Below are positions 28,986 to 60,071 of a stretch of 64,000 nucleotides of DNA, piece after piece (within the stretch, counting starts at the first letter, position 1; each line of letters opens with the position of its first letter). This DNA is from Candidatus Poriferihabitans sp. GTDB taxonomy: Bacteria > Pseudomonadota > Gammaproteobacteria > Arenicellales > Poriferihabitantaceae. Made by a program: the position numbers and the translations under genes. A model generated the notes under the pieces. That model was not told the origin of the DNA and did no database searches. It worked only from the letters and a program-made list of their open reading frames with translations. Location: the NCBI GenBank assembly GCA_965220975.1, contig OZ244855.1, positions 2,384,967 to 2,448,966 on the forward strand, read 5' to 3'.

Positions 28986-29014
28986 CCCGTATTGATTAAG
29001 AGGAATATTAAACA

Positions 29015-30268: not shown

Positions 30269-30290
30269 CCTTGATTGCTTTAATCAAATA

Positions 30291-30316
30291 CCGGGGCGTA
30301 ACAACCCCGGTTTTTT
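30291..30316 (+). terminator. CCGGGG-N8-CCCCGG hairpin plus T6
   Basis: The sequence is CCGGGGcgtaacaaCCCCGGTTTTTT. Confidence 0.65.
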
Positions 30317-30342
30317 CTATGATCTGGGAATATGAATAGCCA

Positions 30343-33149: not shown

Positions 33150-33177
33150 TGTATATTTCCTCTAAATCAATATCGGC

Positions 33178-34428: not shown

Positions 34429-34437
34429 TGCCTCTGC
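34406..34437 (-). repeat. dyad core site d
   Basis: The reverse complement reads GCAGAGGCAGTGTCTGCCGCGGTGATGATGCC. Confidence 0.8.
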
Positions 34438-34653
34438 TACAAGAGTTTTTAGAAGGGGATCAAGCTATCGAATAGCTATATTTTCTCGCTGGTAGAGACT
34501 GTGATTGGAACAACCAATAATCAACGCTTATAATATAAAGGTATAACTTAGCTATTTAGCGTTTTTATTATATGATATATCTATTCTATGTTTTATGTAA
34601 GCACATATAATTGAAGATAAAAACATAACACTCATTTTATTAGGAGGATTTTT

Positions 34654-35556: not shown

Positions 35557-35586
35557 GAAGCCGCTCTAGTACACTAGAGCGGCTTC
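35557..35586. terminator. perfect 13-bp-stem hairpin
   Basis: The hairpin GAAGCCGCTCTAG-taca-CTAGAGCGGCTTC lies directly at the stop of the minus-strand gene 35585-36103. Confidence 0.5.
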
Positions 35587-36103
35587 AGCCTTTTGTTCTA
35601 GTTCTTCGCAAAGTTTTTTTAAATTCATCACGTTCATGGCAAAGTTGCCTAACCCGAAATGGTTGATCGGTACAAAAGGCAGTCTTGAGTAACCAGTATC
35701 CTTGACGCTGGGCAAGCACCACCAAATATTCCTCGCGATACCATAGCAATGTGTTAATCCTATTTTGCCGTCTATTCTGCCACTCATCAATTTTCGAATG
35801 AGTTGTTGCATTTTCTATCACCCATCGTACCCAACGGAGTCGCTCACAACGACGCAGGTCGGGTGTTCGTTCTTCCTCAACATAACCTTCTTGAATCAAG
35901 TGCCAGAATGATGCCCAGCGTCCCGCTGTCTCAGGAATGCGACGACAACCTATTCTTAAACCACGAAACTCAAGACTAGCCCGTGCGATCTCGCACATGA
36001 AAATGCGGTTCAATTCATGTTCATAGGCCCCCCAATTGCCACCAAAATCATCGAGTAGAAGAAGAGCCGGCGGAGTCATTCGTCCGCATTCTGAGCATGC
36101 CAA
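35585..36103 (-). CDS. hypothetical protein (172 aa), partner of the DUF3800 gene
   Basis: The ORF overlaps the 3' end of the DUF3800 gene by 28 nt. I do not recognise a family. Confidence 0.45.
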   Translation of the reverse strand: MACSECGRMTPPALLLLDDFGGNWGAYEHELNRIFMCEIARASLEFRGLRIGCRRIPETAGRWASFWHLIQEGYVEEERTPDLRRCERLRWVRWVIENATTHSKIDEWQNRRQNRINTLLWYREEYLVVLAQRQGYWLLKTAFCTDQPFRVRQLCHERDEFKKTLRRTRTKG

Positions 36104-36801
36104 ACCAAGATATTGAATTTGGTGAAAGCAAAGGAGGATGTGAAGGAAAGTGCCCGTATGCCAAATTGTTCACATAGGCGGTTGATGATCTCCATCTTTG
36201 CACTATTGCCGGTTAGTCTCCGATTTGCATAGGTCAGTGCTCCAATCAAGAGGTCAGTAACTTGTAGAATCTCACTTTCATGAGATCGAATTTGCTGTAC
36301 ACGCTCGATAAACTCCTGATTGAAATCATGGAGGCTGTGGGTCAGAAATTTGTGGAGTTTATGTGTTTTTAGTCCTCCTCGTGAATCCTTCAGGTCAAGG
36401 TATACATGATAGTGTTGTGGAGCGAGAAAAACAGGGCGCAACATTGTAAAGTACATCTTGTAATACCAGTCATCATGTGTCTGATTAAAGTTAAGATGAT
36501 TAAGTTTTGCCTTGTCTGGGACGACCAGCCCTCGAAATCGCAACCGATCATCATCAAGGAAGAAATCGATTAGCCCCAAATAGAAATCGGCCCTAGCAGG
36601 TGAGACTTTAGTCCATTTTGCCTCGAAAGTGGATTTCAAACCATGTTTAATTTTCAGAGCACGTATTTGCTTCGAGAGATCATGGACAAAACGCTTTTCG
36701 CAAATTACAGCCCCCCAAGCCATAACAGGAATCTGGTCATGCTCAAGGTGGCAACTCTCATCACAATATATATTGAAAGTTTTCGGTGTCATAATACTCA
36801 C
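36076..36801 (-). CDS. DUF3800-family protein
   Basis: The N-terminal FNIYCDESCHLEHD motif is typical of DUF3800, and the protein is 241 aa. Confidence 0.6.
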   Translation of the reverse strand: MSIMTPKTFNIYCDESCHLEHDQIPVMAWGAVICEKRFVHDLSKQIRALKIKHGLKSTFEAKWTKVSPARADFYLGLIDFFLDDDRLRFRGLVVPDKAKLNHLNFNQTHDDWYYKMYFTMLRPVFLAPQHYHVYLDLKDSRGGLKTHKLHKFLTHSLHDFNQEFIERVQQIRSHESEILQVTDLLIGALTYANRRLTGNSAKMEIINRLCEQFGIRALSFTSSFAFTKFNILVWHAQNADE

Positions 36802-37465
36802 TTCTGCGCCTCAATTGCGTCCGCCGAGAGTTCGATGCTGTCGATAGAATAAATCAACATATAAGGAAGTTGTTTGGGCATAGATTTAAAAACAGGACTC
36901 GGGCACCTGTTCATTGTTGCAATCTATGCTATCCAGCAATATGTAGCAATCTGTGACCGCTTAAGCACGCTAGCCACCGCTTCAACTATCTCATCCGCTG
37001 AAGAATCATCGTTCTGATACTTCATTCGGTACAGCAATTCACCAAGTTGAGAACGCTTGGTATCGAATACATCGTAATCGCAGCCAAATTCGTTGACTCC
37101 CAGATAGATACTTGAAATTGTATGAATTTCTAAGGCAAGTCCAGATACCCATTTTTCCCTTCGGATTCATTGCAATTGTCATTCGTCCTCACGTTCTTCT
37201 ATTTGTTGACGGCGCGATTGTAACTCATCAGATTCTCAGGTTGCAACGCTCTCTCTCGACTGAAAACCCAGCGAATGACCAAAAAGAAAACTCGGTCGAA
37301 ACGGCTCAAAGCTACATATAGGGCTGAATTAGGAAAAATCATTAATTAGTTATATCGTATCGTGGATTGTGTCTTACATTGCATTCCAGTTCGTTTTCCA
37401 CCCAAACCATTCAATTCGTAAATACCATGTGATTTTTCTCGCTGCTATCGAGATAGACCATTAAA

Positions 37466-37498
37466 GGCAGAGGCAGTGTCTGCCGCGGTGATGATGCC
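37466..37498 (+). repeat. dyad core site e
   Basis: The sequence is GGCAGAGGCAGTGTCTGCCGCGGTGATGATGCC. Confidence 0.8.
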
Positions 37499-38738
37499 CG
37501 TCGGGGCACAGGCAGAGGCGACTGTTTATGGTCGCATTAACAATGTACTGGAGTTCAACGATTCCGGCAAGGCTGGAGAAGACACGACGGCCGATGTCTC
37601 GACTGTCGGGTCGCGTTTCGGCATCAAGGGCAGTGCCGACATCGGCAATGGCCTGACCGCTCGGGGGCATTACGAGTTCGGGCTGAACACCGACAAGAAG
37701 GAAACCGGTCTCAACAATCGAATTGCTTCGGTGGGTGTTGCCGGTGGTTTCGGAAGCATTGATGTCGGCAACCAGTGGAGCGCCTTCTACAACACCACCG
37801 GCGTGGACATGGATCCGAGCTGGAATCAGGGCGGCATCGGGGGTACGCCTTTTCGAGCCTCCAACACCGTCAAGTATGGCAATTCAGTGGGCCCGTTGAA
37901 TCTGGAACTGGATTTGCGTCTGAACGACGGCGGCGATGAAACGGGTACCGAGGGACTTGCCGGTGAAGGCGGCGGACTCGGAGTGCGAGTTGCGGTTACC
38001 GACAACATTACCCTGGGCTTTGCCTACGACAATGAAGACCGGTCGGACATGATCACCCCGGCAGTGTATGGTCATAGATATGATCTTAGTGATCTTACTG
38101 ATGATCAGATAAAGGTTTTGGATTTGAGGAGGTCGAAAGGTACAAATGAAACCAGCGATAGCACAGAAAACAACGGCTCCTATACTGGGCTGACTTATGC
38201 CGGTCCCAGTGCGAAGGATGGAATAGCCAGCAAGCTGTCAGACTATGATGGAGTCTACTGCCTGAGCAGTGCAATGGTTACCGAAAAGAAAGGCAAGATC
38301 ACCGCGAATGATGCGGTAGCAACCAAGGATGTCGGAAAGCTTGGGTTGAAAGAAGGCGATGCTTGTACAGTTACAAAAGACAAGACCGGGGCGGAAACCG
38401 AGCGGATGGGCGTTTCAGCCAAGATTTCACTGGGTCAGTTCTATGGAATCTTTGCCTACAGCACCAAGAACGTAACCGACAATGGCAAGGAGACCGAGAC
38501 CGAATATGCACAAGTCTGGGGAGGCGTACACCTCGCCGACAGCACTTCGGCACTGATTGGTTTTGGCCAGAGCGAGACGGAAGGGATGGATGCAAACCCG
38601 ACCGCGTTGACACTGGGTCTGTACCACAACATGGGCGGCGGATTGCAACTTTGGTATGAAGGTCAGAGCAATGATCCGGACATGGCCGGCATGGACAACA
38701 GCGTCAACCACAAGGCCGGTATCCGGTTTGATTTCTAA
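37476..38738 (+). CDS. porin paralog e, lacking start codon and n-region
   Basis: Porin hallmarks are present. The upstream frame is TAA-IPCDFSRCYRDRPLKAEA-VSAAVMMPVGAQA with no ATG. Confidence 0.8.
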   Translation: MSAAVMMPVGAQAEATVYGRINNVLEFNDSGKAGEDTTADVSTVGSRFGIKGSADIGNGLTARGHYEFGLNTDKKETGLNNRIASVGVAGGFGSIDVGNQWSAFYNTTGVDMDPSWNQGGIGGTPFRASNTVKYGNSVGPLNLELDLRLNDGGDETGTEGLAGEGGGLGVRVAVTDNITLGFAYDNEDRSDMITPAVYGHRYDLSDLTDDQIKVLDLRRSKGTNETSDSTENNGSYTGLTYAGPSAKDGIASKLSDYDGVYCLSSAMVTEKKGKITANDAVATKDVGKLGLKEGDACTVTKDKTGAETERMGVSAKISLGQFYGIFAYSTKNVTDNGKETETEYAQVWGGVHLADSTSALIGFGQSETEGMDANPTALTLGLYHNMGGGLQLWYEGQSNDPDMAGMDNSVNHKAGIRFDF

Positions 38739-38766
38739 CCCGATATTGATTTAGAGGAATTAAATA

Positions 38767-41238
38767 ATGAAACACAAAACATACATTGCGGTGCTGTTGG
38801 CCGGAATGCTGGCACTCGCAGGATGCGGGGGCGGCAATTCCAGCACGCCAGCGACTGTCGCAGTAGTGGAAGGGGCTGCACCATCCGATGGTGGCGGTAC
38901 AAGATACGTGCAGGATCAGAAAGACGCGATTGCCGCTGCTGGAACTTTAGCGGCAGTAAATGCCGTTATTTCCGGCCTGGATAATGACAGACTCTCGGCA
39001 ACAGAGAAAGGCACATTGGAAACTGAAGCTGCTGACAGGAGAAAGGCCATTTCCGATGCTGAGGTTGCCAGGGAAATTGCCCTGATCAAGGCCGCAGCCG
39101 ATGCGGGCAATGTTGACATAGCCCTTGAGATAGCCAAGCGTAACGAGAATATCTTGCCGGAAGCAAAGTCTGCCACGGGTGAAGGTTCGTTGCAAATGGC
39201 CGCTGATGATCGAAAAACTGCAATTTCCAATGAGAATACTCGATTGGCAGGCGAAGCTTCCAGTAATGCCGTTCAAGCTGCAATAGACGCGATCAACGCT
39301 GCGACTAAACTACAGGAAGTTACTGAGGCTGTTGATGAGGCCAATGCCAATGCGGCTATCTTGCAGGCAGAAAAGGACAAAACCGCTGAAGATGCAGGTT
39401 CGTATCAAATGGCCGCGGCAGAGAAGAGGGTCGAGATTTCGAGTGCTACCCAAAGAGCCGCCCTTATGACAGCTGGTGATAAGTTGAGGGATGATTTGGG
39501 CGTCGCAACCGGTGCCGGTGATGCCGTTACACAAGCGCAGATTGACGATGCGAAAGAAGCGCTTGCCGGCCTGAATACCGCTATTGACAATGCAGATGAC
39601 GTGGCAGATGAGCTGAAACAGCCGTATGTGGATCAGCGTGATACTGCCGGCATTGATACGCTGGAATCAAGACTATCCCAGGTCGACGCACTGAAAGCAG
39701 CCCGATCCGCCCTGCTTGCTGCCGTGAAGATCGATGAAAAGGATGCCCTTAATGAAGATGGCTATTTTGATTCGGATGATCCCTTTGGGACATTTATACC
39801 AACCAGAGATGAACTAACCGCTATCGCAGGCTTACGGGATGAACTCAAGCGTTTGCTGGATGACGAATCCGGTGATGTTGTGGATAATGGTCCTTACTGG
39901 AACGCCTATAGCCGAGTTGCACAGTGGTGGAGTTCAAATGACAGGAATTTGAGAGTTGTCGAAACGAATGACCAAAATAGGCAGAATGAACTTGATAAAG
40001 CGAATGCCGCAAGCCTGCACGCCGCGCTTAGTCTTGATTTTAACAACAACGATAATGTTATGGATTTAGATGATGGAACCATCGTTAATGGACGATTTAC
40101 TGACGCAACCACGCTTCAAATAGGTGAAAATGGTGGTGGCACGAGTGATCTGAAAAAAACTGATGCTTCCGTTCCTGCTCTGGCGGGCTGGAGCGGTGCT
40201 CAGTACACCACTACGGATGACGGAGAAATCAACCGCGAGGCGCATGTCTATACCAAGGTGAATCCGGGAAAGGAAGGAAAAATGTTCGCCACCACAGATT
40301 CAGGTAAGGTAGGTACTGGTGATGATGATACCCATCGATACCAACTTATTCTATTGGGTGATGATCACTATAATATAGGTTCTGCAGGCATTACCCGCCT
40401 TGTAAACACTGTTAGCATCATGATTGACAGCTTTACCCAGACCGCAGGAAGCCGGGAGTATGAAAAGCCTGATGGTTCCACTGCTAGTTATGTTTCCGAA
40501 GCCGGTTCCTATCATGGAGTCCGGGGGACGTTTTACTGTAGTGGTGCCCCTGGTGATGCCTGCAAGGTGAATCACGCGGGCGAAAACAAACAAACTTTTG
40601 AGACTGTTGGTAGCTGGCGTTTCGTACCCTCAGATCCCAATGCCCGGGTTACCATGGATGAAGATGCTCCGCTTGCCTCATACGGCTGGTGGCTGGACAA
40701 GTCTGATAGTGATGATTGGAGCGTTGGCGTGTTTGATGCCAATCGGGGTAGTGTTCAGCAACTTAGTCAATTCAATCTAGATTCCGGCAGTGCTACCTAC
40801 CGAGGTGGCGCAGCCGGCAAGTATGCTCTGACCAGCAGCACCGGAGGAAGGAACGAGGCCGGACACTTTACCGCCAGCGTGGAACTCATGGCCAAGTTCG
40901 GAGCTGGTACTGGTGGTAGTACTGGTGATACAATCTCCGGCACGGTTAGCGACTTCAAGAATGGTCAGGGCGCGGACATTGACGGACAATGGAAGGTTGC
41001 GCTAGGAGAATCCATGATTGCAGATACTGGTGCTATTTCTGCTGCTGGAGATAAATCCAAGACCACATGGTCTGTCGGTGAAACCGCTGGAACGGCTGCC
41101 GGTTCCTGGTCGGGCAACATGTGGAAGGAAGGAGACGATGGCGTACCGGACATTGTGACCGGGACATTCAACGCGCACCTCGGCAATGACGGCCGGATGG
41201 CCGGAGCCTTCGGTGCGGATCATGTTCCTAACCCATAA
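38767..41238 (+). CDS. large surface-lipoprotein candidate: lipobox, Ala-rich helical repeat stalk, TbpB-like C-terminal barrel (SLP e)
   Basis: The lipobox is MKHKTYIAVLLAGMLALAGC. Repeats about 71 codons long include GSLQMAADDRKTAIS and GSYQMAAAEKRVEIS. The C-terminus reads ATYRGGAAGKYA...GHFTASVELMAKF...ISGTVSDF...WKVAL...RMAGAFGAD. Confidence 0.75.
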   Translation: MKHKTYIAVLLAGMLALAGCGGGNSSTPATVAVVEGAAPSDGGGTRYVQDQKDAIAAAGTLAAVNAVISGLDNDRLSATEKGTLETEAADRRKAISDAEVAREIALIKAAADAGNVDIALEIAKRNENILPEAKSATGEGSLQMAADDRKTAISNENTRLAGEASSNAVQAAIDAINAATKLQEVTEAVDEANANAAILQAEKDKTAEDAGSYQMAAAEKRVEISSATQRAALMTAGDKLRDDLGVATGAGDAVTQAQIDDAKEALAGLNTAIDNADDVADELKQPYVDQRDTAGIDTLESRLSQVDALKAARSALLAAVKIDEKDALNEDGYFDSDDPFGTFIPTRDELTAIAGLRDELKRLLDDESGDVVDNGPYWNAYSRVAQWWSSNDRNLRVVETNDQNRQNELDKANAASLHAALSLDFNNNDNVMDLDDGTIVNGRFTDATTLQIGENGGGTSDLKKTDASVPALAGWSGAQYTTTDDGEINREAHVYTKVNPGKEGKMFATTDSGKVGTGDDDTHRYQLILLGDDHYNIGSAGITRLVNTVSIMIDSFTQTAGSREYEKPDGSTASYVSEAGSYHGVRGTFYCSGAPGDACKVNHAGENKQTFETVGSWRFVPSDPNARVTMDEDAPLASYGWWLDKSDSDDWSVGVFDANRGSVQQLSQFNLDSGSATYRGGAAGKYALTSSTGGRNEAGHFTASVELMAKFGAGTGGSTGDTISGTVSDFKNGQGADIDGQWKVALGESMIADTGAISAAGDKSKTTWSVGETAGTAAGSWSGNMWKEGDDGVPDIVTGTFNAHLGNDGRMAGAFGADHVPNP

Positions 41239-41305: not shown

Positions 41306-42544
41306 TTACTTGACCGCACCGAATGCAGCGGTAATCTCCGCTCGCTGAAGCGTGCCGGCGGCGGTTTCCGCCTCAAATCCGTAGAAGGCCCCGACCACAT
41401 CCGGGATGCCGTCCCGATCCCGTGCATCGCTGGACGAATCGAAGTAGTGACCATGCAGGCCGAGATCGTAGCGATAGCCGTTTCGGTTCCACCACTTGCC
41501 CTTCCAGTCATAAATTCGGTGAAACCGGGCCTCTCCCGTTCCTCCATTGAAGTCAATGCTCAGGTCGGCAACACCCAGCACGGGTTCGGCGGCAGCATAT
41601 CCGACCAGGCTACCGCTGTACGATGCCCTGCCGGACAGCTCATTCAGTCTCGGAGCTGCTATGTGTTTGGCATCGACCCACGGAATGAAGACTGTCTCCC
41701 GATGCAGGCTGTCTACCCCGAAATGCACCCCGCCCGCATGATCCGCTACCATCTTCATGCCGGTATCCCAGGAACCCCATTCATGCAGGTCGTACAGCAT
41801 CGACACGTCAATCAGCGGCACGTTATCCAGCTCTCCTTCCCGGTGGTGGCGATAGGACAGGATGGACGTGTGAACCGGGTGCGGATGTCCCCCAAATCCA
41901 AGCGCATGCAGGAATTCATGCACCATGGTATCCACCAAAGGCCTCATGCGGTGAGGGGTAGAGAGGTCATGGTCCGTTTCATCACCAAGGGCATAACCCC
42001 TCGTGCCATCGGTCCACGCCACGCCGCCGGAATCCGGATCGTCATAAGGATAAATCTCGGCATGGATCACCCCTTCCGGGACAAGAGACCTGGAACGCGC
42101 TAACTGACTATCCCTGTTCACGCCGGAAAAGGTTCGGCGGGTTATTTGGTAGCCGAGTCGGTATTCCTCGGGCAGGGAACGGTTGAGAATGCCGAGTGCA
42201 CGGCGGATCACCCATACCTCCTCTTGCGTACTGCTTGAGGAAACATGGACTTCGGGCAACCGGTTCCAGGGACGGAACCACCCGCGCCCGGATACGGAGC
42301 AGTCAGAATAACCGTTGTCTTTCACACAGTCATCGTACATCGCCTGGCGATAGTCCCGGCGGGCATCATGACCAATGCCCTGATGGTGTGCTCCGGTCCG
42401 GGAGAGAGCTTCCTCTGGCCTGATTTGCTTCGCTGGGTCCGGATTGCTTGACCCACTCCCTCCGCAACCGCTCAGGACAGACAAAATCGCAACCAGGGCG
42501 ATAGCCCTTATTTTCCGTTTACTGTTCCAGAATGCGAGATTCAC
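41306..42544 (-). CDS. lipoprotein zinc metalloprotease with TbpB-like C-terminal domain, copy 2
   Basis: The lipobox is AILSVLSGC and the zinc motif is HEFLHALGFGGH. The last 203 aa are identical to copy 1, while the N-terminal half has diverged. Confidence 0.75.
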   Translation of the reverse strand: MNLAFWNSKRKIRAIALVAILSVLSGCGGSGSSNPDPAKQIRPEEALSRTGAHHQGIGHDARRDYRQAMYDDCVKDNGYSDCSVSGRGWFRPWNRLPEVHVSSSSTQEEVWVIRRALGILNRSLPEEYRLGYQITRRTFSGVNRDSQLARSRSLVPEGVIHAEIYPYDDPDSGGVAWTDGTRGYALGDETDHDLSTPHRMRPLVDTMVHEFLHALGFGGHPHPVHTSILSYRHHREGELDNVPLIDVSMLYDLHEWGSWDTGMKMVADHAGGVHFGVDSLHRETVFIPWVDAKHIAAPRLNELSGRASYSGSLVGYAAAEPVLGVADLSIDFNGGTGEARFHRIYDWKGKWWNRNGYRYDLGLHGHYFDSSSDARDRDGIPDVVGAFYGFEAETAAGTLQRAEITAAFGAVK

Positions 42545-42606
42545 GGGTTGTATTCACTTGACCAGATCAGGCAGATCGACGTCCATTCCGATTCCTGTTC
42601 CGGAAT

Positions 42607-42634
42607 GAAAAACCGGGGTTGTTATGCCCCGGCT
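42607..42634 (-). terminator. CCGGGG hairpin terminator
   Basis: On the minus strand the sequence reads AAGCCGGGGCataacaaCCCCGGTTTTTC. Confidence 0.6.
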
Positions 42635-42798
42635 TATCTCAAACGGAATGATCGCGTATCTGCGCCAAATGCACCGACCATGGTTGCCTCATCATTACCG
42701 TATTCTGCCTCAAATGTTCCGGTCGCAGCAGTGGGGGCTTGTTTTCTAGATTCCATAACCGATCTTGACAGTCGTCGGCAATGACTGGTGCAGACGCT

Positions 42799-43551
42799 TT
42801 ATCGTTCAATAAAAATAACGCCATTTTCAACATAGGTATCGTCGGATACAACAAACCCGCCAGAATAAATGAAACTGTTGCCGCTACCGCCAGCAACCGC
42901 ACCGATTACTTCATCAGCCCCAACCAAACCACCTAAATCACCACCGACACCCCGAAAACTACTGATTCCTTTCACACTCCCATCGGCATTGAATGTGCCA
43001 TTGATACGAAGGTCGCTGGAATCCGTAATGCTTTTCCCGGTGATTGTTCCATCATCAAAATTTATTGTCGCAGAAAATGCTTTTCGTTCACTCACTTTTG
43101 GATGTGACCAGATACCGGTTGTTCGAGTAGGGGTATTTTCTCCACGTGGAATAATGACCTCTGTGTCGCCATCCCGAACATAGATACCACGATTTGAACC
43201 GCCTCCACTCACCTCTCTTCCAAGATATTCTGAGAACATGACTTGATATCTTCCGAACAAGGTTGCAGAGCCGGATGATGTGGTTATTGGGGTTACTTCT
43301 GTTTGAGGCCACATCCCTGCATAGGCCACTGGTTTATTACCACGGAGGCCAATAGCAAATGATACTTTTCCGTTGTCTTTGTAACTTTCTAGCGTTTCAT
43401 GCCCCCAAACGCTACTCAATTCAAATGCGCCAGTGGCATCAGGCGCGACAATTGAATACCGGTCAATTGATTCCTCGCCACCACAAGCAACCAATAATAC
43501 ACAGGCTGTCGAAAGGAAAATATACTTCATAAACTTTTTCAATAAAGCCAT
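42799..43551 (-). CDS. lipoprotein (250 aa) with a TbpB-like C-terminal region
   Basis: I chose the start at MALLKKFMKYIFLSTACVLLVAC (lipobox), because the track N-terminus runs through the terminator hairpins. The C-terminus includes ATINFDDGTITG...INGTFNADGSVKG...VIGAVAG. Confidence 0.6.
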   Translation of the reverse strand: MALLKKFMKYIFLSTACVLLVACGGEESIDRYSIVAPDATGAFELSSVWGHETLESYKDNGKVSFAIGLRGNKPVAYAGMWPQTEVTPITTSSGSATLFGRYQVMFSEYLGREVSGGGSNRGIYVRDGDTEVIIPRGENTPTRTTGIWSHPKVSERKAFSATINFDDGTITGKSITDSSDLRINGTFNADGSVKGISSFRGVGGDLGGLVGADEVIGAVAGGSGNSFIYSGGFVVSDDTYVENGVIFIER

Positions 43552-43593
43552 CTCTTCTATTTGTTTCGTTTTTGTTTCGTTGTTTATCATGAG

Positions 43594-43672
43594 TAAAAAA
43601 CCGGGGCTTTTTACGCCCCGGTTTGTAGTTGTAGATGTGTTCACAAAAAACCGGGCTGTTACGCCCGGTTTG
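43594..43672 (-). terminator. two tandem hairpin terminators after SLP f
   Basis: The hairpins are CCGGGGC-N7-GCCCCGG (43601-43621) and CCGGGC-N6-GCCCGG (43651-43668). Each has a T-run on the minus strand. Confidence 0.6.
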
Positions 43673-43687
43673 TACAAGTAACGGTTA

Positions 43688-45829
43688 TTAGTTGTCCAGA
43701 TTGACTCCGAAAGCACCAACCATGCGCCCGGTGACCTGTCCCCTGTTCAAATATTCCGAATGGAATTTGCCAGTCGCAGATTGTGGTGTACCAGCTCCGT
43801 CCTCACCAGGTTTAATAACGTTGTAAAACTGTCCTTCCCAAGCTCCAGATTTTTCAGCGGCAGTACCACCCATGGTCCATGTGGTCATCTTCGCTGGCCC
43901 AGCACTACCATCGTTGCCAAGAATCGCCTCTTCCAGTGCGATTGACCAATCCCGAGACTGGCCGTCATCACCAACCTTGAAGTTGCTGACGGTGCCGGAA
44001 ACCTTGTCGGTACTGAAATTCGCATTCAGCGTGGCATCTGCGATAAAGTGCCCGGCATCGTTGGTTGAACCCGTGCGAATCGCATACTTCCCGGCCGCGC
44101 CACCCTGATAGGTTGCGGTACCATTCAAACTTTGTAAATCACTTGCGCGGGGAACAGCACCCCTAAGGACAGTAAAAGCACTAACAGTGGCCTTGCCGTC
44201 ATCGGCTTCGTGTATCCACCAGCCATAAGATTCATAGACATTATCAGGCGTTTGCATCAACAAAGTATCAGGATTGGTAGGTCTGAATGACCAGGTACCG
44301 ACAAATGTAAATCCTTCTGAGGCTGTACGCACTGTGCATGTTTGGTCACGACCAGACCCGGTATCACAAATATAATGCCCTGATACGCCGCTGTATGTAC
44401 CTGGAATTTCTATATCCTGTGGATTACCGTTATTACTTGGCAGTTTAAATGTTTTGTCACCTGAACCTTGGTCAAATCTCGGGCTTGAAACTTCGGCGGG
44501 CATGAAACTAGCACTCGGTAATTCTCCGTTAGCGAAATCGAAACCAGTCAAAGTTGAAAATGCAAGTCCTGGCTCAGGCGTTCCAACATTCGAGTACAGC
44601 CGAGCCGTGTAGGTGCCTCCACCTTGACCATTTCCATCAGCCTTAGCAGTGTGCTCCGAACCTGTCCAGCCATGCAAGTCTGTAACCATTGTATCCTTAT
44701 CTTCTTTCAATGGCGTAGCTGTACTCACTCCACTATCACCCCTTTGAACTGATAAAACGCCAGTACTTGCATTGATTCTAGGAGTACTTGATGCATTGTT
44801 TGCAAGAGGAGTGCCGCGTAACCCTTCCCAAAGTTTCAAGGTCATCGCCAGAGCATCAGCTTGTTGCTGATTGTGTCGCTGAGTTTCTTCACGAGTTAGC
44901 CTTTCATTCTGTGCAGTTGCCCAGCCGGTCTCAGTGTCATAGGCCGTTTGATAGGTGCTCGTATCAATGGGATTGCCGGTAATCGTGTCACCCGCATTAT
45001 TTGCATTGTCCAGTGCGGTTTTCAGCGCTCCGTGAGCCGTTATGACCGCGTTATACTGCTCCCTGGTCGGAGTATTCCCTGCCGCACTCCGACTCGTATC
45101 CAGATCGCTTTTTGCATCCATCAACGCTTTAACCAGCCCTTGCCTCGTCTTGAGCTTCTCAATGTCGGCATTGGCGTTATCACGACTCGTCTCATAGGAA
45201 GACTTGTCGTCAACATCTGCAGCTTGAGAAATTGCAGTATCCAGGTTGGCTCGAGCGGTTTCGACAGCCATGATCAAGGCATCATCAACGTCATCTCCAG
45301 CATCTTTCGCACCAGTCAGAGCTCCAGTCAGTGCAGTGTCGAGATTCTCCAGATTCGTGCGCTGAGTACTTTGTCGAGCCTGTTTCTGAATCTCGCCCGT
45401 CTTCCTGTTTGCCTTGTCCGTGAGATCAGCATGTGCAGTCATGAGTATGTTGCCGTTCGCCTTGGCTGTTTCTAATGCATCCGTGACCTCCTGTACTGTG
45501 GCTGCAGCCTCTATCTCATTCTCTGCCACTCCGACGGCAGTAGCAGAAATGCTGTTTTTCCTGGCTGTTGCCTCTCCTTCCAAGGTTTGAAAGTCTTTCT
45601 GAGAAATTTCATCCCGGTCCAGATCTTGCAAGATTTTCTCAACGGCTGCAATGGTAGTCGCTCCAGCGATTGCAGCCGATGCATCGGTCACGATCTTGGC
45701 GGCGGCCTCTTCAGCAGCTTCGGCAGCTTGGCTAGCCGCTTCTTCCGGGCTGATGCCGCTACTCCCCCCGCATCCTGCGAGCGCCAGCATACCGGCCAGC
45801 AGGGCCGCTATGTATGTTTTCTGTTTCAT
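43688..45829 (-). CDS. large surface-lipoprotein candidate with helical stalk and TbpB-like C-terminal barrel (SLP f)
   Basis: The lipobox is MKQKTYIAALLAGMLALAGC. The C-terminus reads ATYQGGAAGKYA...GHFIADATLNANF...VSGTVSNF...WSIAL...RMVGAFGVN. Confidence 0.75.
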   Translation of the reverse strand: MKQKTYIAALLAGMLALAGCGGSSGISPEEAASQAAEAAEEAAAKIVTDASAAIAGATTIAAVEKILQDLDRDEISQKDFQTLEGEATARKNSISATAVGVAENEIEAAATVQEVTDALETAKANGNILMTAHADLTDKANRKTGEIQKQARQSTQRTNLENLDTALTGALTGAKDAGDDVDDALIMAVETARANLDTAISQAADVDDKSSYETSRDNANADIEKLKTRQGLVKALMDAKSDLDTSRSAAGNTPTREQYNAVITAHGALKTALDNANNAGDTITGNPIDTSTYQTAYDTETGWATAQNERLTREETQRHNQQQADALAMTLKLWEGLRGTPLANNASSTPRINASTGVLSVQRGDSGVSTATPLKEDKDTMVTDLHGWTGSEHTAKADGNGQGGGTYTARLYSNVGTPEPGLAFSTLTGFDFANGELPSASFMPAEVSSPRFDQGSGDKTFKLPSNNGNPQDIEIPGTYSGVSGHYICDTGSGRDQTCTVRTASEGFTFVGTWSFRPTNPDTLLMQTPDNVYESYGWWIHEADDGKATVSAFTVLRGAVPRASDLQSLNGTATYQGGAAGKYAIRTGSTNDAGHFIADATLNANFSTDKVSGTVSNFKVGDDGQSRDWSIALEEAILGNDGSAGPAKMTTWTMGGTAAEKSGAWEGQFYNVIKPGEDGAGTPQSATGKFHSEYLNRGQVTGRMVGAFGVNLDN

Positions 45830-45857
45830 TGTGTATTCCTCTTAAATTGAATCAGGC

Positions 45858-46922
45858 CTAGAAGTCGTAGCGGATGCCAATGTGATGGACAACTTCGTCA
45901 TCGGCACCGGCTACATCTTTATCCGTGGAACCGCCTTCGTACCAGAGCTGCAACCCGCCGCCCATGTTGTGGTACAGTCCGGCCGCAATCTTGCTTGGTT
46001 CGGCGACCACATTTTCAGTTTCTTCCGTTGAGTAGCCAAGCCATCCCGAAGTGCTGTCCGAAAAGCTCATGCCGACATAGCCGGCAACATATTCCTTGTC
46101 GGGCTGAGCCACCCCGGCACTGTCTTCCGATTCATGAGAGCTCCAGCCCAGAGCACCCCAGAACTGGCCGAACGACAGATTGGCAGAGATGCCGGCCCGG
46201 CTGTGCTCATGACCACGCGTTGTTGTTTCGCCCTTCGTTTCACGGCGATTAGTGTCATCAAGAGGGGTATTATTGGTAAAATTGGGGTTTACCTCTTTAC
46301 GGACACTGGGTGAAGTGGTAGTTACAATATCGGTTTGATCATCCACATCAAAAGCGACTGCAAGCGTGACATTCTCGGTTGCGGCAACCCGGATGCCGAT
46401 GCCGCCACCATTGCCGGACAGTTTATCCCCTTCATCGCCCTCATCACCGAGACGCAGATCCGCCTCCAGGGCCAGGGGGCCAACCGAGTTGGAATACTTG
46501 ATGGTGTTGGGAGAGCGGTAGGGAGTACCGCCGATCGGGCCAATCGTCCAGGTCGGATCAATGTCCACGCCAACCGTGTTGTAGAAGGCGGTCCACTGGT
46601 TGCCCACGTCCACCCGTCCGAAGCCGCCGGAAATGCCCGCCGTTGCGATGCGGGTAGAAGTGATTCCGTCGGCACCGTCATCGGTATTGGTACCGAACTC
46701 GTACCGGCCATGAGCGGTCAGACCATTGCCCAGATCGGAACTCGCCTTGACCCCAAACCGAGATCCAACGCCCTGAATATCGGCCGTCGAATCATTCATG
46801 CCGCCCTTGTCTTCAAGGACAATTGCGTTGTTGATCCGACCGTAGACGGTCATGTCAGCCTGTGCCCCGACGGGCATCATCACCGCGGCAGACACTGCCG
46901 CAGCCACTAAGGATTTTTTCAT
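45858..46922 (-). CDS. porin paralog f, the only copy with RBS, ATG and a complete signal peptide (expression-site candidate)
   Basis: The RBS GAGGAAA lies 8 nt upstream of the ATG at 46920-46922. The signal peptide is MKKSLVAAAVSAAVMMPVGAQA, followed by DMTVYGRINNAI, and the C-terminus is GIRYDF. An AT-rich promoter-like region lies upstream. Confidence 0.88.
   Translation of the reverse strand: MKKSLVAAAVSAAVMMPVGAQADMTVYGRINNAIVLEDKGGMNDSTADIQGVGSRFGVKASSDLGNGLTAHGRYEFGTNTDDGADGITSTRIATAGISGGFGRVDVGNQWTAFYNTVGVDIDPTWTIGPIGGTPYRSPNTIKYSNSVGPLALEADLRLGDEGDEGDKLSGNGGGIGIRVAATENVTLAVAFDVDDQTDIVTTTSPSVRKEVNPNFTNNTPLDDTNRRETKGETTTRGHEHSRAGISANLSFGQFWGALGWSSHESEDSAGVAQPDKEYVAGYVGMSFSDSTSGWLGYSTEETENVVAEPSKIAAGLYHNMGGGLQLWYEGGSTDKDVAGADDEVVHHIGIRYDF
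46873..46899 (-). repeat. dyad core site f (inside the signal-peptide coding region of the complete porin)
   Basis: The reverse complement reads GGCAGTGTCTGCCGCGGTGATGATGCC. In this copy the dyad extends to GCGGCAG-TGT-CTGCCGC. Confidence 0.8.
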
Positions 46923-46978
46923 TAGATATTTCCTCAATTATTTATGTTATTTTGCTGGCCGAATTACCAGCGGAGCGA

Positions 46979-47009
46979 ATATTACCACGTGAACATTAAA
47001 ATTTTGTAA
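46979..47009 (-). promoter_or_regulatory. putative sigma70 promoter of porin f
   Basis: On the minus strand there is an extended -10 TGgTAATAT (46979-46987). A TTACAA -35-like hexamer lies 19 nt upstream (47004-47009). This is sequence inspection only. Confidence 0.3.
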
Positions 47010-47015
47010 TTATTT

Positions 47016-47084
47016 TGGTATTTGCTTAAATTATTTTTATTGGTATATTATTGGTATTATTATGGTATAAATTTGGTATAATTA
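47016..47084. promoter_or_regulatory. phased TGGTAT repeat array upstream of porin f
   Basis: TGGTAT starts at 47016, 47041, 47052, 47063 and 47074. The last four form exact 11-bp tandem units: TGGTATATTAT, TGGTATTATTA, TGGTATAAATT and TGGTATAATTA. Confidence 0.6.
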
Positions 47085-47349
47085 AACATTAAAAGGCCAT
47101 CAATAACTAACGAAAATACTAACAATGAAACCTGCTTCAATCATCACTTACTAGACCATAAGGGCTATGCATTCATCATTAATAACAAATTCTTCATTAT
47201 CCTGGTATGGTCTGGAACGCATACGTATATATAAATATTACTTACCAAAAGAACTTTTCCTCGATTTCTCATGCATCCCACATTCAACTATGAAGTGCAA
47301 CGCCCTGCCCAATTTGTTTGATTTTGACAAAATCTTCGGGAAAATACGA

Positions 47350-47788
47350 TGAGAAAAGTGGAATCGGCTCAGTTGGAAATTGGTGGTGTCTTCATTAAGG
47401 ACATCGAGATCAGTCCCAAGTCCCGAGATGACATACCGGCACTGCTGCTTGATCTGCAGCACCTGCAGTGACCCAAGAGTTGCGCCGACAAGTGGTCGCG
47501 TTGCTATAGTCAGAGTTCAGACCCGAAACACGCAAAAACACCAGTCATCCGAGCATGAACTTGTGGAGCATGCTGGTGCTTGCGGTGCTCAAGCAAGGAC
47601 TGGATTGCGGTTTTGACCGGCTTGCCCACATTGCGAATAATGACGGGCTGGTGCGTCAGATGATGGAACACGAAAATATGGATCACCAATATGAGTTGCA
47701 AACGGTGATCGACAATGTCAGTCTGCTGGGTCCGGAATTGCTTACCGAGATCAGCGCACTCGTAGCTCGACGGGCCACAAGGTACTAG
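47350..47788 (+). pseudogene. degraded transposase fragments (family uncertain, IS5/ISNCY-like)
   Basis: The first piece is MRKVESAQLEIGGVFIKDIEISPKSRDDIPALLLDLQHLQ*. A second piece in another frame reads LKQGLDCGFDRLAHIANNDGLVRQMM. Stops and frame changes separate the pieces. Confidence 0.35.
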
Positions 47789-48551
47789 AAAAAAAGCCTG
47801 GCAAGCCGTTGCGCGCTATTGACCACCCTGTGCAACCTGATTCAAAGTGCTCGGCAAAGCTGAGAATGGCAAATGAAAGCCTGTCTCAGGCTATGCTCCT
47901 CAAAATGCTTGTCCAAGCACTAAAATTATCAATAATGCACGCACAATACGTGGTGATTCGAAACTCTCATGCCGGATGTAGCTCTGGTTTTCGAGCACAC
48001 TCCAGACGGATTGCTGGAAAAACGAGGTTTTCTGGCATACACTACCCGAGAATTTGTCATTTAATTGTTGCGTCTTTGGATAGTACTCAACGGTATTTTA
48101 GATTAGCCATTTTTCTGGGGCGTCTATATCAGGTATACATTCCTTCAGTAATTCTCCGCTTTGTCCTGTAAAGGATCTCCAAAGGATCGCCCCTCTGGTT
48201 ACTCACCGACGAAAACATTTGGCGCATTGAGATCGCCCCTATGTGAGCATGCAACCTTCTAAAGGGCATTGCATTGCAAACTATTTCATTCCAATCAATA
48301 GCCAGGTTACATCCAGATTGGAGGAACAAGTATCAAATACGCGAGTATTGTAGCGAAATACACCATGGCTAGATGTGCATATAGTTTATAGTTTTTCCCA
48401 TTATATCTTCGTTCAACATGTTCCATGGAACATGAAACACAAAGCTCCAAAGGTCACGAGTATTAAAGATAATTCGTAATATATCGGTCATTTTCTACTC
48501 CGATTCAATTCGCCAGTTCATGCCCGAAGTACGGTGCCTTGGTCCACGTAT

Positions 48552-50405
48552 CTACATACCCCCACTCACAGATGAGATTCCTGCCAAAGAGGTATACTTG
48601 GGTACAATCGGCCCCTTTCCTTCAATAAGAGCTTGAATTTCATCAAGATCCTCCATAAATTCCTGCAAACCAACCTTAAGATAACGCCAGCAACTGAATT
48701 CTGTCTTGCTACGATGACTCTTGATCGCCTGTTTTGCTCGCGTCAGATGACTGAGGGCGAAATTATTGTTGCCAATTGCCCAATGAGCGATTGCCATACA
48801 CTGATCATAGTTGGGACCAGGATACTTATTGGGATCCGATTGATCAAGTTCCACAACATTGTCAAATAACTTTGCTTCCGCTTTTCCGTATACTCCCCAC
48901 TGAGCCATTGCAAAATTAAATGCCCGAACAATGTCCAGATCGTCTATGCCTTGCCCATCATCTCGAAACATGCTTGCGGCCTCTGCGCATCTTCCAAAAC
49001 CCATATACAGCATCCCCAACTTATGTCTGGCAGACTTACGCTGTGCTTCCGGCAAACTCTTAGTGGATAATACTTGCTCAAACAGGTCAATACCAAGTCG
49101 GATTTCATCATGGGAACGGTCGAACATGTCGGCCAGCCAGTGCTTTTCTTCGGAACTCAATGACAAAACTGCGGGCGATTGAATAGCAAGTTTCCTGTCT
49201 AGCATATTCAGGCGAATCAGTCGCGACAAGGCCTCTTTTACCATAGGTGGCGATACATTTTGACACTTCAGAACACGCCAAACATCTTCCACCACACCAT
49301 CAAGTTTGAGTCTCTCGCGGATTCTAGAACGCTTCAGAAAGGCATCCGGCTGTTTGAAACCTTTGGTAATTGCTTGATCGATTAATGACAAGGCTGATTC
49401 CAAATCAAGATGTGACTCTCTGAACTCTCCCAATCGAAATAACACTTCGCCATCATTTGCATGTCCCTCTTGAATCTTGTCGAGCATGAGGTGCTGATTT
49501 AGCATTAAGTCGTGGTCTATCGTCCTCCATGACCTGTCTGCTCGTCGTATATATTCCAGAGCACCATCCCGATCATTCCAGTTGCGCAAGGAGATTTCAC
49601 GAACAATTTTTGCATACTCGCTGGCTAAACGGCTCTTTGGCCGATCTTTAGAAAATACTACTTGATTCAATAGAGATAAACTGTCATATCGATGAACAAT
49701 CATCGGCTTCTGGCGAAAACCAAGTTGCTCTTGAAACTGCCTGATTTTATTTTCGAGTATCTGATCCTCATCGTCCAAATCAGGGACGTTTGACATAACA
49801 AAGTGAAGTTCTATATTCTTTTTCCTTACTCCCACTGCTTCCTCTCTGATGTCCCCAACTACATTGGCCAGGCCACGGAGGTTTTGTTCATTTGGAAAGA
49901 AAAAAGCAACGACCGCATCAGGAAGTTGCCGAGTGCAAATTCCACTCGTATCCGTGTGCCCGGTGCGGGAATCAATCAAGACATAATCCGGGTTGAAAGA
50001 TTTCTTCCACTGTTCCTTGAGATCTTCAAGCAAAAGAAAACCATCATGCTTTTCGTAAAGTTCGATCCAGTCAATTTGGCTGAAGCTGGCGGCATAACTT
50101 TCTTTTTTTCCAGATTGCATGATTTGCAGGCTGCCACCCTGATTTCCAATAGGTGGACACTCGGCAACAAAGTTGCTGACATCCGGAGATCGTCCTGTTT
50201 CCAGATACTGAGCAACGAAGTCAATTACGCCCAAAACCTCCTGGGAGGGCTTTAATGCATCAAATGTGTCGAGGCCCGGAGCCTCAAGATCAAAATCCAC
50301 AACCAATACATGGCGACCGTTCTTCGCTAATGTGATAGCTGCATTTGCCAATGCCATAGTACGGCCAACACCACCCTTGAATGAATAGAATGTAGTGATG
50401 TACAT
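48552..50405 (-). CDS. KGGVGR-motif ParA/MinD-like ATPase fused to a C-terminal TPR-like helical region
   Basis: The N-terminus reads FYSFKGGVGRTMALANAAITLAKNGRHVLVVDFDLEAPGL. The C-terminal 350 aa or so are helical-repeat-like. Confidence 0.7.
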   Translation of the reverse strand: MYITTFYSFKGGVGRTMALANAAITLAKNGRHVLVVDFDLEAPGLDTFDALKPSQEVLGVIDFVAQYLETGRSPDVSNFVAECPPIGNQGGSLQIMQSGKKESYAASFSQIDWIELYEKHDGFLLLEDLKEQWKKSFNPDYVLIDSRTGHTDTSGICTRQLPDAVVAFFFPNEQNLRGLANVVGDIREEAVGVRKKNIELHFVMSNVPDLDDEDQILENKIRQFQEQLGFRQKPMIVHRYDSLSLLNQVVFSKDRPKSRLASEYAKIVREISLRNWNDRDGALEYIRRADRSWRTIDHDLMLNQHLMLDKIQEGHANDGEVLFRLGEFRESHLDLESALSLIDQAITKGFKQPDAFLKRSRIRERLKLDGVVEDVWRVLKCQNVSPPMVKEALSRLIRLNMLDRKLAIQSPAVLSLSSEEKHWLADMFDRSHDEIRLGIDLFEQVLSTKSLPEAQRKSARHKLGMLYMGFGRCAEAASMFRDDGQGIDDLDIVRAFNFAMAQWGVYGKAEAKLFDNVVELDQSDPNKYPGPNYDQCMAIAHWAIGNNNFALSHLTRAKQAIKSHRSKTEFSCWRYLKVGLQEFMEDLDEIQALIEGKGPIVPKYTSLAGISSVSGGM

Positions 50406-50409
50406 ATCA

Positions 50410-50967
50410 TCATGCCACTTTGTACAATTGAAATTCCTGTTGTTTTTTTCGCATGTAGTCAGTTATCTCAATTGCACGGAATTTCCTTCTTGTAGAGTCC
50501 ATTGCTTGGGTGGTGACCGCCAACGAAAGAAATCTTTCAAGATGACTGTTATTAGCCGGGAACTGGAGGAGGCGCAGATACCGATCATATGCATGAGTCT
50601 GAATGCCCAATCCATTCTCCCAGCGATTTAGGGAAGCCTCTCCAATGCCTGTCAGTCGGGCAAATTGGGCCCGCGTCATGCCATATTGATTTCTGATGCG
50701 TTTAATTTCAATTGGAGGAAGCACCCCGAGATGCCGGCAAACCGCATCATGTTTTATTTGTTCCGATTCCTCATCAAGATATTCAAACTCGCAGGCATTG
50801 CATCGACGTACAGGGACATTCACCGATAGTTCCACCATGGATTCTCCAGATCCATAGTTGAAAACCAATGAATTCCATGCTGTTCTGGTTTCATCTGTGC
50901 CACACATTGGGCAAGCCCCTTCCTGTTTCACTGCCTGTGAACGAGGCCTGGTTCGTCTTGCGTTCAT
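50410..50967 (-). CDS. MqsA-like antitoxin (zinc-ribbon plus XRE HTH)
   Basis: The zinc ribbon is formed by CPMCG...CNACEF, followed by IKRIRNQYGMTRAQFARLTGIGEASLNRWENG. The gene lies 5 nt upstream of the ATPase gene. Confidence 0.65.
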   Translation of the reverse strand: MNARRTRPRSQAVKQEGACPMCGTDETRTAWNSLVFNYGSGESMVELSVNVPVRRCNACEFEYLDEESEQIKHDAVCRHLGVLPPIEIKRIRNQYGMTRAQFARLTGIGEASLNRWENGLGIQTHAYDRYLRLLQFPANNSHLERFLSLAVTTQAMDSTRRKFRAIEITDYMRKKQQEFQLYKVA

Positions 50968-57945: not shown

Positions 57946-58419
57946 TTACCAAATCACGCTGTTTAACGGCTGACCGCACGAGATCAGTCGGACTCTTTCT
58001 CTTTTTCCACGGTAGGAGATCATGTTGGCTTTCTTCTTAAACTGATTAATTTCATGTTTCGAGACACCTCCAGAAGCTGCAACGGGTCGAAATCTTATTT
58101 CTTTCCTATCAGGTAATATTCCAACAGCAGCCGAAGAACCAGCTCTTAATTGCCTGACTACTAAACTTGAATCCAACTTACCTCGTTTGAGCTCAAGCAA
58201 GACTACCCAGCCATTTCCCTTCTGATCGTCTGCAACCAGGAGGTAGTCGCAACGAGGGGAATCTTTAGGTAATGGTGAACCAGGCTTGTCAAAATCCAAA
58301 ACCGATCGAGGTTTTGGTACTCCATTCAACGGGACCTCGCACCCATGCTTTTTCAAACTGCCCTGATGAAGACAGTCCTTATTCACTTTATTACGAAACT
58401 CTTTCAGGAAATTACTCAC
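57946..58419 (-). CDS. small PD-(D/E)xK-type nuclease candidate
   Basis: The 157-aa protein reads RCDYLLVADDQKGNGWVVLLELKRGK, which fits the D...ExK motif. It overlaps the upstream ATPase gene by 8 nt. Confidence 0.45.
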   Translation of the reverse strand: MSNFLKEFRNKVNKDCLHQGSLKKHGCEVPLNGVPKPRSVLDFDKPGSPLPKDSPRCDYLLVADDQKGNGWVVLLELKRGKLDSSLVVRQLRAGSSAAVGILPDRKEIRFRPVAASGGVSKHEINQFKKKANMISYRGKRERVRLISCGQPLNSVIW

Positions 58420-59905: not shown

Positions 59906-60071
59906 GGTTTTGTTTCTTGGGTACACGACTTTATTTTAATACCCCTTCATACATCCTATACATGTTTGAAAAATATGAAAACAATGAAACGATGGCAATT
60001 TCCTGATTTTTAGGACAGTACCAATCACAAATCCGTGAAGGCATGAAAGGAGTGGACACAGTGCAAATCCA

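Follow-up and report, generated by a model that had tools for sequence, protein, structure and literature searches.

How does a general porin come to stand directly in front of a surface lipoprotein of the Neisseria type, and why should most copies of that porin gene in one genomic region lack their own beginning? Both questions are raised by a 64,000-nt stretch of Candidatus Poriferihabitans sp. (contig OZ244855.1, positions 2,384,967 to 2,448,966), which we refer to as the window. Positions 43688-46922 of the window had previously been read, from the letters alone, as a porin-lipoprotein operon without the TonB-dependent receptor and the Slam translocon that usually accompany such lipoproteins. 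We found at least six porin-lipoprotein cassettes in the window, one of which is expressible, and consider it probable (about 0.68) that they constitute a shufflon-like surface-variation system with one expression site and multiple silent cassettes. The flagged operon and the genes that follow it are arranged as listed here.

46900-46935 (-): leader of the expression site, with ribosome-binding site (RBS) GAGGA, ATG and porin signal-peptide codons 1-8 (MKKSLVAA)
46882-46899 (-): expressed copy of the proposed recombination core, GGCAGTGTCTGCCGCGGT
45858-46922 (-): expressed porin of 354 aa, ATG at 46922, 16-stranded general-diffusion class
45830-45857 (-): porin-lipoprotein spacer of the flagged pair, 28 nt, RBS AAGAGGA
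43688-45829 (-): surface-lipoprotein candidate of 713 aa with lipobox LAGC, an Ala/Glu/Thr-rich region, a 'handle' and a barrel
43595-43668 (-): two tandem terminator-like hairpins, each with a T run, at the end of the porin-lipoprotein operon
41306-43560 (-): two extra lipoprotein genes within the proposed expressed invertible segment
42799-43560 (-): the first of these, a lipoprotein of ~250 aa
41306-42544 (-): the second, an HExxH protein with the barrel motif

The porin at 45858-46922 is the only one in the window that possesses a full Sec signal peptide and a translation start (MKKSLVAAAVSAAVMMPVGAQA). Alignment of the 5' ends of all six porin genes showed that the other five are devoid of promoter, RBS, start codon and the first ~9 codons; their homology to the expressed copy starts abruptly at GGCAGTGTCTGCCGCGGT, and the DNA upstream of this point is unrelated. 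These five truncated genes open the following cassettes, which are probably silent since they lack the promoter, RBS, ATG and first 8-9 codons.

37472-41238 (+): core at 37472-37489, truncated porin 37476-38738, lipoprotein 38767-41238 (823 aa)
31893-34432 (-): core at 34415-34432, truncated porin 33178-34428, lipoprotein 31893-33149
27905-31215 (+): core at 27905-27922, truncated porin to 28985, lipoproteins 29015-30268 and 30343-31215
18259-20947 (-): core at 20930-20947, truncated porin 19903-20943, lipoprotein 18259-19872
14504-18196 (+): core at 14504-14521, truncated porin to 15437, lipoprotein 15466-16920, HExxH lipoprotein 16949-18196

The 36-mer leader has a single match in the window even if up to 3 mismatches are allowed, and one copy was found in each of the contigs L001, L004 and L005, which derive from the same species. 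A further porin-lipoprotein module with the same flank type and core is located ~180 kb off in the same genome; the position of another porin of this genome, P0272, was not located. Every cassette continues the reading frame of the leader, and the five silent porin open reading frames (ORFs) are intact (309-420 codons) despite a DNA divergence of 17-35%.

The point at which the homology begins is an invariant 18-mer, GGCAGTGTCTGCCGCGGT, located within signal-peptide codons 9-15. Its 15-mer core occurs exactly 6 times in the window compared with 0.08 expected occurrences, namely at 14504 (+), 20947 (-), 27905 (+), 34432 (-), 37472 (+) and 46899 (-). The orientations alternate strictly, so that the cassettes form three convergent pairs. 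In the expressed copy, the core and its left flank together make up the palindrome GCGGCAG-TGT-CTGCCGC. Across ten distinct copies the core codons GCA GTG TCT GCC GCG display zero synonymous change; the next conserved residues after the core (V, P, V, G and A) all vary synonymously. The invariance of the core at synonymous sites points to a constraint on the DNA itself. Furthermore, the cassette at 37472 converges on the expressed one, and an inversion between 37472 and 46899 would bring it under the promoter, with its porin in frame with the leader.

A collection of 5'-truncated genes could also be explained without any programmed switching: the cassettes would then be ordinary paralogous operons, mostly decaying at their 5' ends or using internal GTG starts, and homologous recombination between strains would shuffle the junctions. 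Some flanks do resemble decayed leaders, GTG or ATG codons are present at or near the site, and the locus is as rich in insertion sequence (IS) elements and defence islands as one would expect of a plastic region. However, the products of the truncated genes would start at SAAVMMPVGAQA, with neither a charged n-region nor a spaced RBS, and it is difficult to reconcile simple decay with five silent porins that are all intact. Of the gene-called porins of the clade, 49 have their start within or beyond the signal peptide, compared with 8 that possess a full leader, so that a ratio of ~6:1 recurs across the clade, whereas the more distant porins, which serve as an internal control, all carry complete MNKKLIAAAVSAAV... 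leaders. Together with the single leader per locus and the synonymous-site invariance of the core, these observations make the absence of programmed switching very unlikely in our view.

Two further observations concern the site. In several silent flanks from two species, a palindrome CTATC-N(1-3)-GATAG is present ~25-45 nt upstream of the core (window 37430-37445 and 34470-34485, ~15450 in L005 and ~7490 in L008); it could be a site for an accessory protein or an insulator. A scan of Joint Genome Institute (JGI) metagenome contigs for the 22-nt site returned two matches, which were discarded as chance hits in unrelated contigs of 62% GC.

If the core is a crossover point, identical flanks should be found joined to different cassettes. 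Such alternative junctions were drawn from different contigs or strains. The expression flank is identical over 70/70 nt in L004, a contig of the same species from another sample, but is joined there to a different cassette; likewise, in the same species (RuvA 100% identical) a different cassette occupies the syntenic expression site. Silent flanks are reassorted as well: the flank at window position 27905 is identical to that at L004:17833 (120/120 nt) while the cassettes are only 73% identical, and the cassette at 20947 is 96% identical to the one at L005:19552, the flanks of the two being unrelated. In L005 and L006, which belong to one assembly, the flank is 100% identical through GGCAGTGTCT and then leads into different porins. 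The silent-flank peptide MLRNDMSVCYGFHRVNDFPAE was found in identical form joined to three different cassettes, which are 54-81% mutually identical. One cassette was found in both expressed and silent contexts in other strains; porin P0252 with its full leader and P0389 behind the MLRNDMSVCYGFHRVNDFPAE silent flank share 93.9% identity, and nearly all differences between them fall within the first ~50 residues. The crossovers are confined to 18-25 nt. Aberrant junctions are found at the same place: the L006 junction shows a 5-nt GCCGC deletion at the core, and in the ~180-kb-distant module (L090) a core-adjacent deletion of 57 nt starts at GCCGC.

Neisseria pilE/pilS and Borrelia vlsE, which vary by gene conversion, likewise combine a single expression locus for a major surface antigen with silent copies that lack a promoter and are truncated at the 5' end. 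Under such a mechanism, sequence would be copied non-reciprocally and RecA-dependently into the expression locus, without a site-specific recombinase, with the conserved part of the signal peptide and further conserved blocks serving as homology. The absence of promoter and 5' end from the silent copies resembles pilS, no recombinase is linked to the locus, and mosaic cassettes exist, the porin 3' end, the spacer and the lipoprotein 5' end being 74-85% conserved. However, in our case the silent flanks swap cassettes too, at a defined short site, which means that the exchange is reciprocal. Strict alternation of the sites in convergent pairs, several independent crossovers that fall in a span of 18-25 nt at the border of the homologous region, aberrant deletions at the core and conservation of the core at the DNA level also speak against copying of this kind. 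Because of the reciprocal exchange of silent flanks, the narrow crossovers, the synonymous-site conservation and the aberrant junctions, we favor site-specific recombination over pilS-like conversion, which we regard as rather unlikely.

We propose the following model for site-specific switching. The expression site would provide promoter and RBS and would encode the start of the porin signal peptide, from the ATG through codon 8 or 9, and at least five further cassettes in the window as well as one ~180 kb away would be silent for want of these parts. Reciprocal recombination at the 18-bp site would fuse another cassette in frame to the leader, most likely via site-specific inversion by an unlinked tyrosine recombinase, and as a result the major porin and the downstream lipoprotein would change together. 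Homologous recombination in conserved stretches would add mosaic cassettes. Surface display of the lipoproteins would probably depend on a Slam translocon whose gene lies at another genomic locus. For a sponge-associated gammaproteobacterium, such switching would likely pay off through escape from phage adsorption or from host recognition. Inversion as the specific mechanism is less certain than the switching system as a whole.

Several points weigh against this model. The mosaic porins and the reassorted porin-lipoprotein pairs indicate that ordinary homologous recombination is also at work. Some silent flanks keep a decayed leader (TTA AAA AAA GCA CTT GCG ACA GAG), so part of the pattern could stem from old duplications followed by decay. 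The silence of the truncated copies is deduced from their sequence, and the alternative junctions are those of separate contigs or strains rather than of reads from one clone. The window and the 10 kb on either side of it contain no recombinase gene, and tblastn searches of the window with four integrases found none; in L005 an integrase lies close to the expression site, on a strain-specific insertion that the window lacks. With regard to Slam, a profile built from 10 Slams gave 2348 matches, and none of the 120 matches listed is on this genome, the contigs checked being those of 3,368,333, 3,218,294 and 2,991,077 bp. This negative says little, since genomes rich in lipoprotein copies are likewise absent among the matches listed.

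The L005 gene, which encodes a tyrosine recombinase and lies upstream of the expression site at a distance of 1.5 kb, was rejected as the switch enzyme: it is part of a 4.9-kb strain-specific insertion and forms a singleton cluster. The sole other candidate is a XerC/D-like gene in a context resembling an integrative and conjugative element (ICE), ~8 kb from the ~180-kb-distant module. This ICE-like module (L090:1-4546) encodes ArdC, the XerC/D-like tyrosine recombinase, a prepilin peptidase and a TraI_2 relaxase; with the recombinase beside the prepilin peptidase, the arrangement is reminiscent of pilU-pilV-rci in R64. In other metagenome-assembled genomes (MAGs), a tyrosine recombinase gene precedes a homologue of the lipoprotein (L003:9557-9744, L031:8838-9025, L049:8884-9096 and L056:8435-8647), and the gap between the two genes contains 21-28-nt inverted repeats (CCGATAATCGTTATTATCAGA) that are 146-163 nt apart. 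Judged by their layout, these repeats look like an invertible-promoter switch, and phase variation of the lipoprotein family may be widespread, by different mechanisms.

Some cassettes in other contigs are damaged. L001:8909-9972 contains a split porin (contig coverage 6x), L004:15026-17374 a Tn5-like insertion in a silent porin, and the deletions at the core site described above are located at L006:10215 (5 nt) and L090:9955-9975 (57 nt). In the window, the first cassette pair is surrounded by inverted repeats: 11161-11784 matches 21083-21727 with 98-100% over ~620 nt, and 14326-14548 matches 20903-21126 with 91-95% over ~220 nt. The repeat codes for a small coiled-coil membrane protein (MEGMAEP...), and its left copy is split by a ~2.5-kb insertion. 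An IS256-family transposase (21845-23218) adjoins the repeat; a second copy is found at 2713-4140. Upstream of the only complete porin, the stretch 46990-47090 is very AT-rich and contains a repeated ATACCAA motif (TATACCAAATTTATACCATAATAATACCAATAATATACCAATAAAAA) that could represent a promoter UP element or a regulator-binding array. Farther upstream, 47165-48500 resembles a degraded IS.

What are the two proteins that would be exchanged? The window porins match Pfam Porin_4 above the curated threshold (E ~1e-25, 88-98 bits compared with a cut-off of 27 bits; E 1e-24 for the flagged porin at 45858-46922). An AlphaFold2 (AF2) model of the latter, with a mean predicted local distance difference test (pLDDT) value of 87, is a 16-stranded barrel with an L3 helix, and a Foldseek search with this model retrieved Omp32, BpsOmp38, PorB, OmpT/U and OmpF (E ~1e-17 to 1e-15, template-modelling (TM) score ~0.7-0.8). 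The original prediction of a general porin of the 16/18-strand type is thus borne out. It had also described a lipobox in all the lipoproteins, and this is indeed present in every one in the window (L-A-G-C-G-G; ...LLAGMLALAGC-GG). The C-terminal motif ATY.G.A.GKYA...GHFTA...SGT(I/V)SNF...W.V.L...GAFGA, likewise noticed at that stage, recurs in all five main paralogues, and four others carry a weaker version of it.

This motif had been taken for the 8-stranded barrel of the TbpB/fHbp/HpuA class. We modelled the C-terminal 329 aa of the flagged lipoprotein with AF2 from an alignment of 76 homologues; the Ala/Glu/Thr-rich region of ~380 aa lies outside this fragment. The model (pLDDT 91.1, predicted TM score 0.77) consists of a beta-rich 'handle' followed by an 8-stranded barrel, the strands of which extend over residues 187-327 of the fragment. 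When the Protein Data Bank (PDB) was searched with Foldseek, the top 16 matches were exclusively fHbp, the NHBA C-domain, HpuA, hemophilin HphA and PmSLP-1 (E 1.5e-5 to 2e-3), and the first unrelated protein appeared at rank 17 with E 0.013. The predicted structure therefore supports a barrel of the fHbp/NHBA/HpuA/TbpB class. Profile scores remained below the curated cut-offs: TbpB_B_D gave 18-21 bits (cut-off 26 bits, E 5e-4), NCBIfam slam_lipo (NF041636) 21-26 bits (cut-off 80 bits, E 2e-5) and HphA_C a sub-threshold 18 bits; TbpB_B_D and slam_lipo matched 13 and 2 of the 76 family members, respectively. A sequence search of the PDB with the lipoprotein-family profile found no surface lipoprotein (SLP). 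Hence the structural part of the predicted class assignment stands and its counterpart at the profile level does not. Because the profile scores fall under the curated thresholds despite the matching fold, the lipoproteins would by curated criteria form a new, distant family outside PF01298 and NF041636.

Two additional lipoproteins, encoded at 16949-18196 (+) and 41306-42544 (-), are 84% identical to each other and combine the same C-terminal barrel motif with a metalloprotease-like HExxH motif (HEFLHALGFGGH). They are located in the middle of convergent cassette pairs. Their slam_lipo match is sub-threshold (E 3e-4) and no Pfam match was found. Both are kept in L005, L008 and L090; the identities in L005 and L008 are 75-81%.

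We then return to the question of why the two genes stand together. All six porin-lipoprotein junctions in the window have a spacer of 28-30 nt with (A/T)AGAGGAA, and a CCGGGGCG...CCCCGGTTT hairpin is located downstream of every pair. The co-orientation and the short RBS-containing spacer noted for the flagged pair thus apply throughout; co-transcription of each lipoprotein with its porin, which had been assumed as well, does not fit with 5/6 porins being 5'-truncated. A consensus scan for sigma-70 promoters and terminators was uninformative, with fewer matches than in shuffled sequence and obvious hairpins missed, and a scan of the window for Rfam families and tRNAs yielded none.

The absence of a TonB-dependent receptor and of a DUF560 gene from the window, on which the original prediction had relied, was confirmed. 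Pfam scans covered all ORFs of at least 450 aa, except for the second copy of the IS256-type transposase (21845-23218), plus 18 shorter ORFs, and none of these matched TonB-dependent receptors (PF00593, PF07715) or SlipAM/DUF560. The only window ORFs of at least 600 aa are AprA, two lipoproteins and a CbiA-like ATPase. A tblastn search of the window with a genuine Slam protein found no match, and the 10 kb beyond each window end carry housekeeping and defence genes, with no Slam, TonB-dependent receptor or recombinase among them.

On a two-partner model, with which this absence agrees, the porin would be the dedicated outer-membrane partner or even the translocon of the lipoprotein, in place of a TonB-dependent receptor and Slam, and the pair would be a two-component uptake or surface module. 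In line with this idea, all cassettes and three genomes of the lineage keep the order porin, 28-30 nt, lipoprotein, and the switching of both genes as one unit would fit as well. Among L001-L084, a porin lies beside the lipoprotein only in L001 and L004-L006 (the window's species), L008 (an Arenicellales MAG) and L012 (a mis-binned contig); the co-oriented pairing is kept in a second strain and in the Arenicellales MAG. However, the pairings reassort. The lipoprotein at 15466-16920 has a 93% identical orthologue in the same species whose partner porin shares only 43% identity with the one in the window, and the porin at 19903-20943 has a 98% identical orthologue paired with a lipoprotein that is ~53% identical. 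This argues against tightly co-adapted physical partners, although docking on conserved surfaces would be compatible with it. Moreover, the porin fold is the usual one for a 16-stranded diffusion porin, L3 helix included, homologues of the lipoprotein elsewhere are linked to Slam without a porin (see below), and the Slam search covered the window and 10 kb flanks of this genome. A porin-SLP two-partner module that operates without Slam or receptor is not supported by these findings, and we give the porin as a replacement for both very little credence.

A related idea can be combined with cassette switching: porin and lipoprotein might form a physical surface complex, or the porin might assist or replace Slam export, so that whole translocon- or receptor-plus-cargo units would be swapped. 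We consider this a long shot. If true, TbpA/TbpB or SusC/SusD would have a counterpart that is built on a porin and comes with its own antigenic variation.

Slam linkage becomes visible in the relatives of the lipoprotein. A profile search found >330 un-annotated homologues. When one genome per GTDB species was scanned, 77 loci were obtained, almost all of them in sponge-type MAGs, including Arenicellales, Poriferihabitaceae, Binatia, Entotheonellaceae, Rhodobacterales and Defluviicoccus; the homologues are 33-54% identical over 330 aa. One homologue is located 1.2 kb upstream of a protein with tetratricopeptide repeats (TPR) and PF04575. According to tblastn, a Slam (43-56% identical) adjoins the lipoprotein in ~22/78 loci of other MAGs, and in 14 of these ~22 loci the Slam follows on the same strand, starting 130-480 nt downstream. 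Those of the adjoining PF04575 proteins that bear a name in their source are called 'surface lipoprotein assembly modifier'. Many-copy genomes, for example a 4.99-Mb Poriferihabitaceae MAG, mostly have no Slam within 10 kb of each copy. Slam1 works in trans in Neisseria, and in the many-copy genomes Slam evidently acts in trans as well. As so many homologues are found without a nearby Slam, its absence from 64 kb is weak evidence.

The family is found in MAGs of Gamma- and Alphaproteobacteria, Binatia, Entotheonellaceae, Acidobacteriota and Nitrospinota (L008-L084); contigs assigned to Chloroflexota and Saccharibacteria that carry it are probably mis-binned. Several genomes contain 5-8 copies. 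The many phyla and these copy numbers suggest that the family has spread horizontally within sponge microbiomes.

How does the proposed system compare with known ones? In the G segment of phage Mu, which is inverted by Gin, a constant promoter and N-terminal codons lie outside an invertible segment with two convergent alternatives, each comprising the variable rest of gene 1 and a complete gene 2 (Sv+U versus Sv'+U'); P1 Cin and the Piv pilin inversion of Moraxella are comparable. Here, each arm would similarly contain the remainder of the porin and a whole lipoprotein gene, with the constant 5' part outside. In contrast to Mu, there are three segments and more elsewhere in the genome for a single expression flank, the cargo is chromosomal and destined for the outer membrane instead of being tail fibres or pilin, no invertase is adjacent, and the crossover site lies inside the region coding for the signal peptide. 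The R64 shufflon (Rci/sfx) also uses multiple short sites in both orientations, which are asymmetric with one conserved and one variable arm, and fuses a constant N-terminal part to alternative C-terminal segments. However, it is a compact plasmid element with rci adjacent that varies only the C-terminus of PilV, whereas the cassettes described here are multi-gene units of 3-9 kb distributed across >30 kb.

Closest in cargo are the SusC/SusD inversions of Bacteroides fragilis and B. thetaiotaomicron, which are cited as a known target class in PMC9881135 (refs 5, 38, 39). There too, inversions in the 5' end of a barrel gene swap operons for a barrel and a surface lipoprotein behind one promoter. 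The differences are a 16-stranded diffusion porin instead of a 22-stranded TonB-dependent transporter, a lipoprotein of the Slam/fHbp type, a gammaproteobacterial host and an unlinked recombinase. The architecture of Slam-dependent lipoproteins and cargo of the type XI secretion system (T11SS) has been described (PMC5449769, PMC12282271). Like TbpB, LbpB, fHbp, HpuA, NHBA, HphA and PmSLP-1, the window lipoproteins combine a lipobox and a variable N-terminal effector part with a C-terminal 8-stranded barrel, and their relatives are encoded directly upstream of PF04575 genes. In contrast to known Slam cargo, they score below the PF01298/NF041636 thresholds and have no TonB-dependent receptor partner; the family occurs in sponge-type MAGs of many phyla and, here, in cassette-variable porin operons.

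A literature search found neither a description of a porin shufflon nor a paper tying Slam lipoproteins to sponge symbionts, and switching of porin and SLP cassettes is to that extent previously undescribed. Programmed swaps of whole outer-membrane operons are known mainly from Bacteroides (SusC/SusD), and otherwise from pilins and tail fibres; here the same logic would apply to a major general porin and a Neisseria-type surface lipoprotein. The data also define a large, un-annotated, Slam-linked lipoprotein family in many phyla, some members of which are located beside inverton-like switches; it may constitute a general, variable interface between symbiont and host or between symbiont and phage. 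With an invariant 18-bp site, multi-kb cassettes and an unlinked recombinase, the locus offers a concrete, testable system.

The nearest genome is that of an Arenicellales MAG. In the window, 7153-10329 encodes aprB and aprA (adenosine 5'-phosphosulfate (APS) reductase) and an AprM-like membrane protein, which indicates a sulfur-oxidising or sulfur-metabolising lifestyle. The host is probably a sponge-associated, sulfur-oxidising gammaproteobacterium, the sponge association being suggested by the habitat of the lipoprotein family. Genes of the kind found in defence islands are located between and beside the cassettes (23453-27524, 35585-36801, 48552-50967 and 55236-61262) and comprise ThiF/E1-like and AAA_21, PIN-like, DUF3800, CbiA-like ATPase-TPR and MqsA-like helix-turn-helix (HTH), AAA_15/21 and AAA_14/DUF4143 proteins. 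This content varies by strain, and L004 and L005 carry GmrSD, MvaI/BcnI and DruA-transposase genes.

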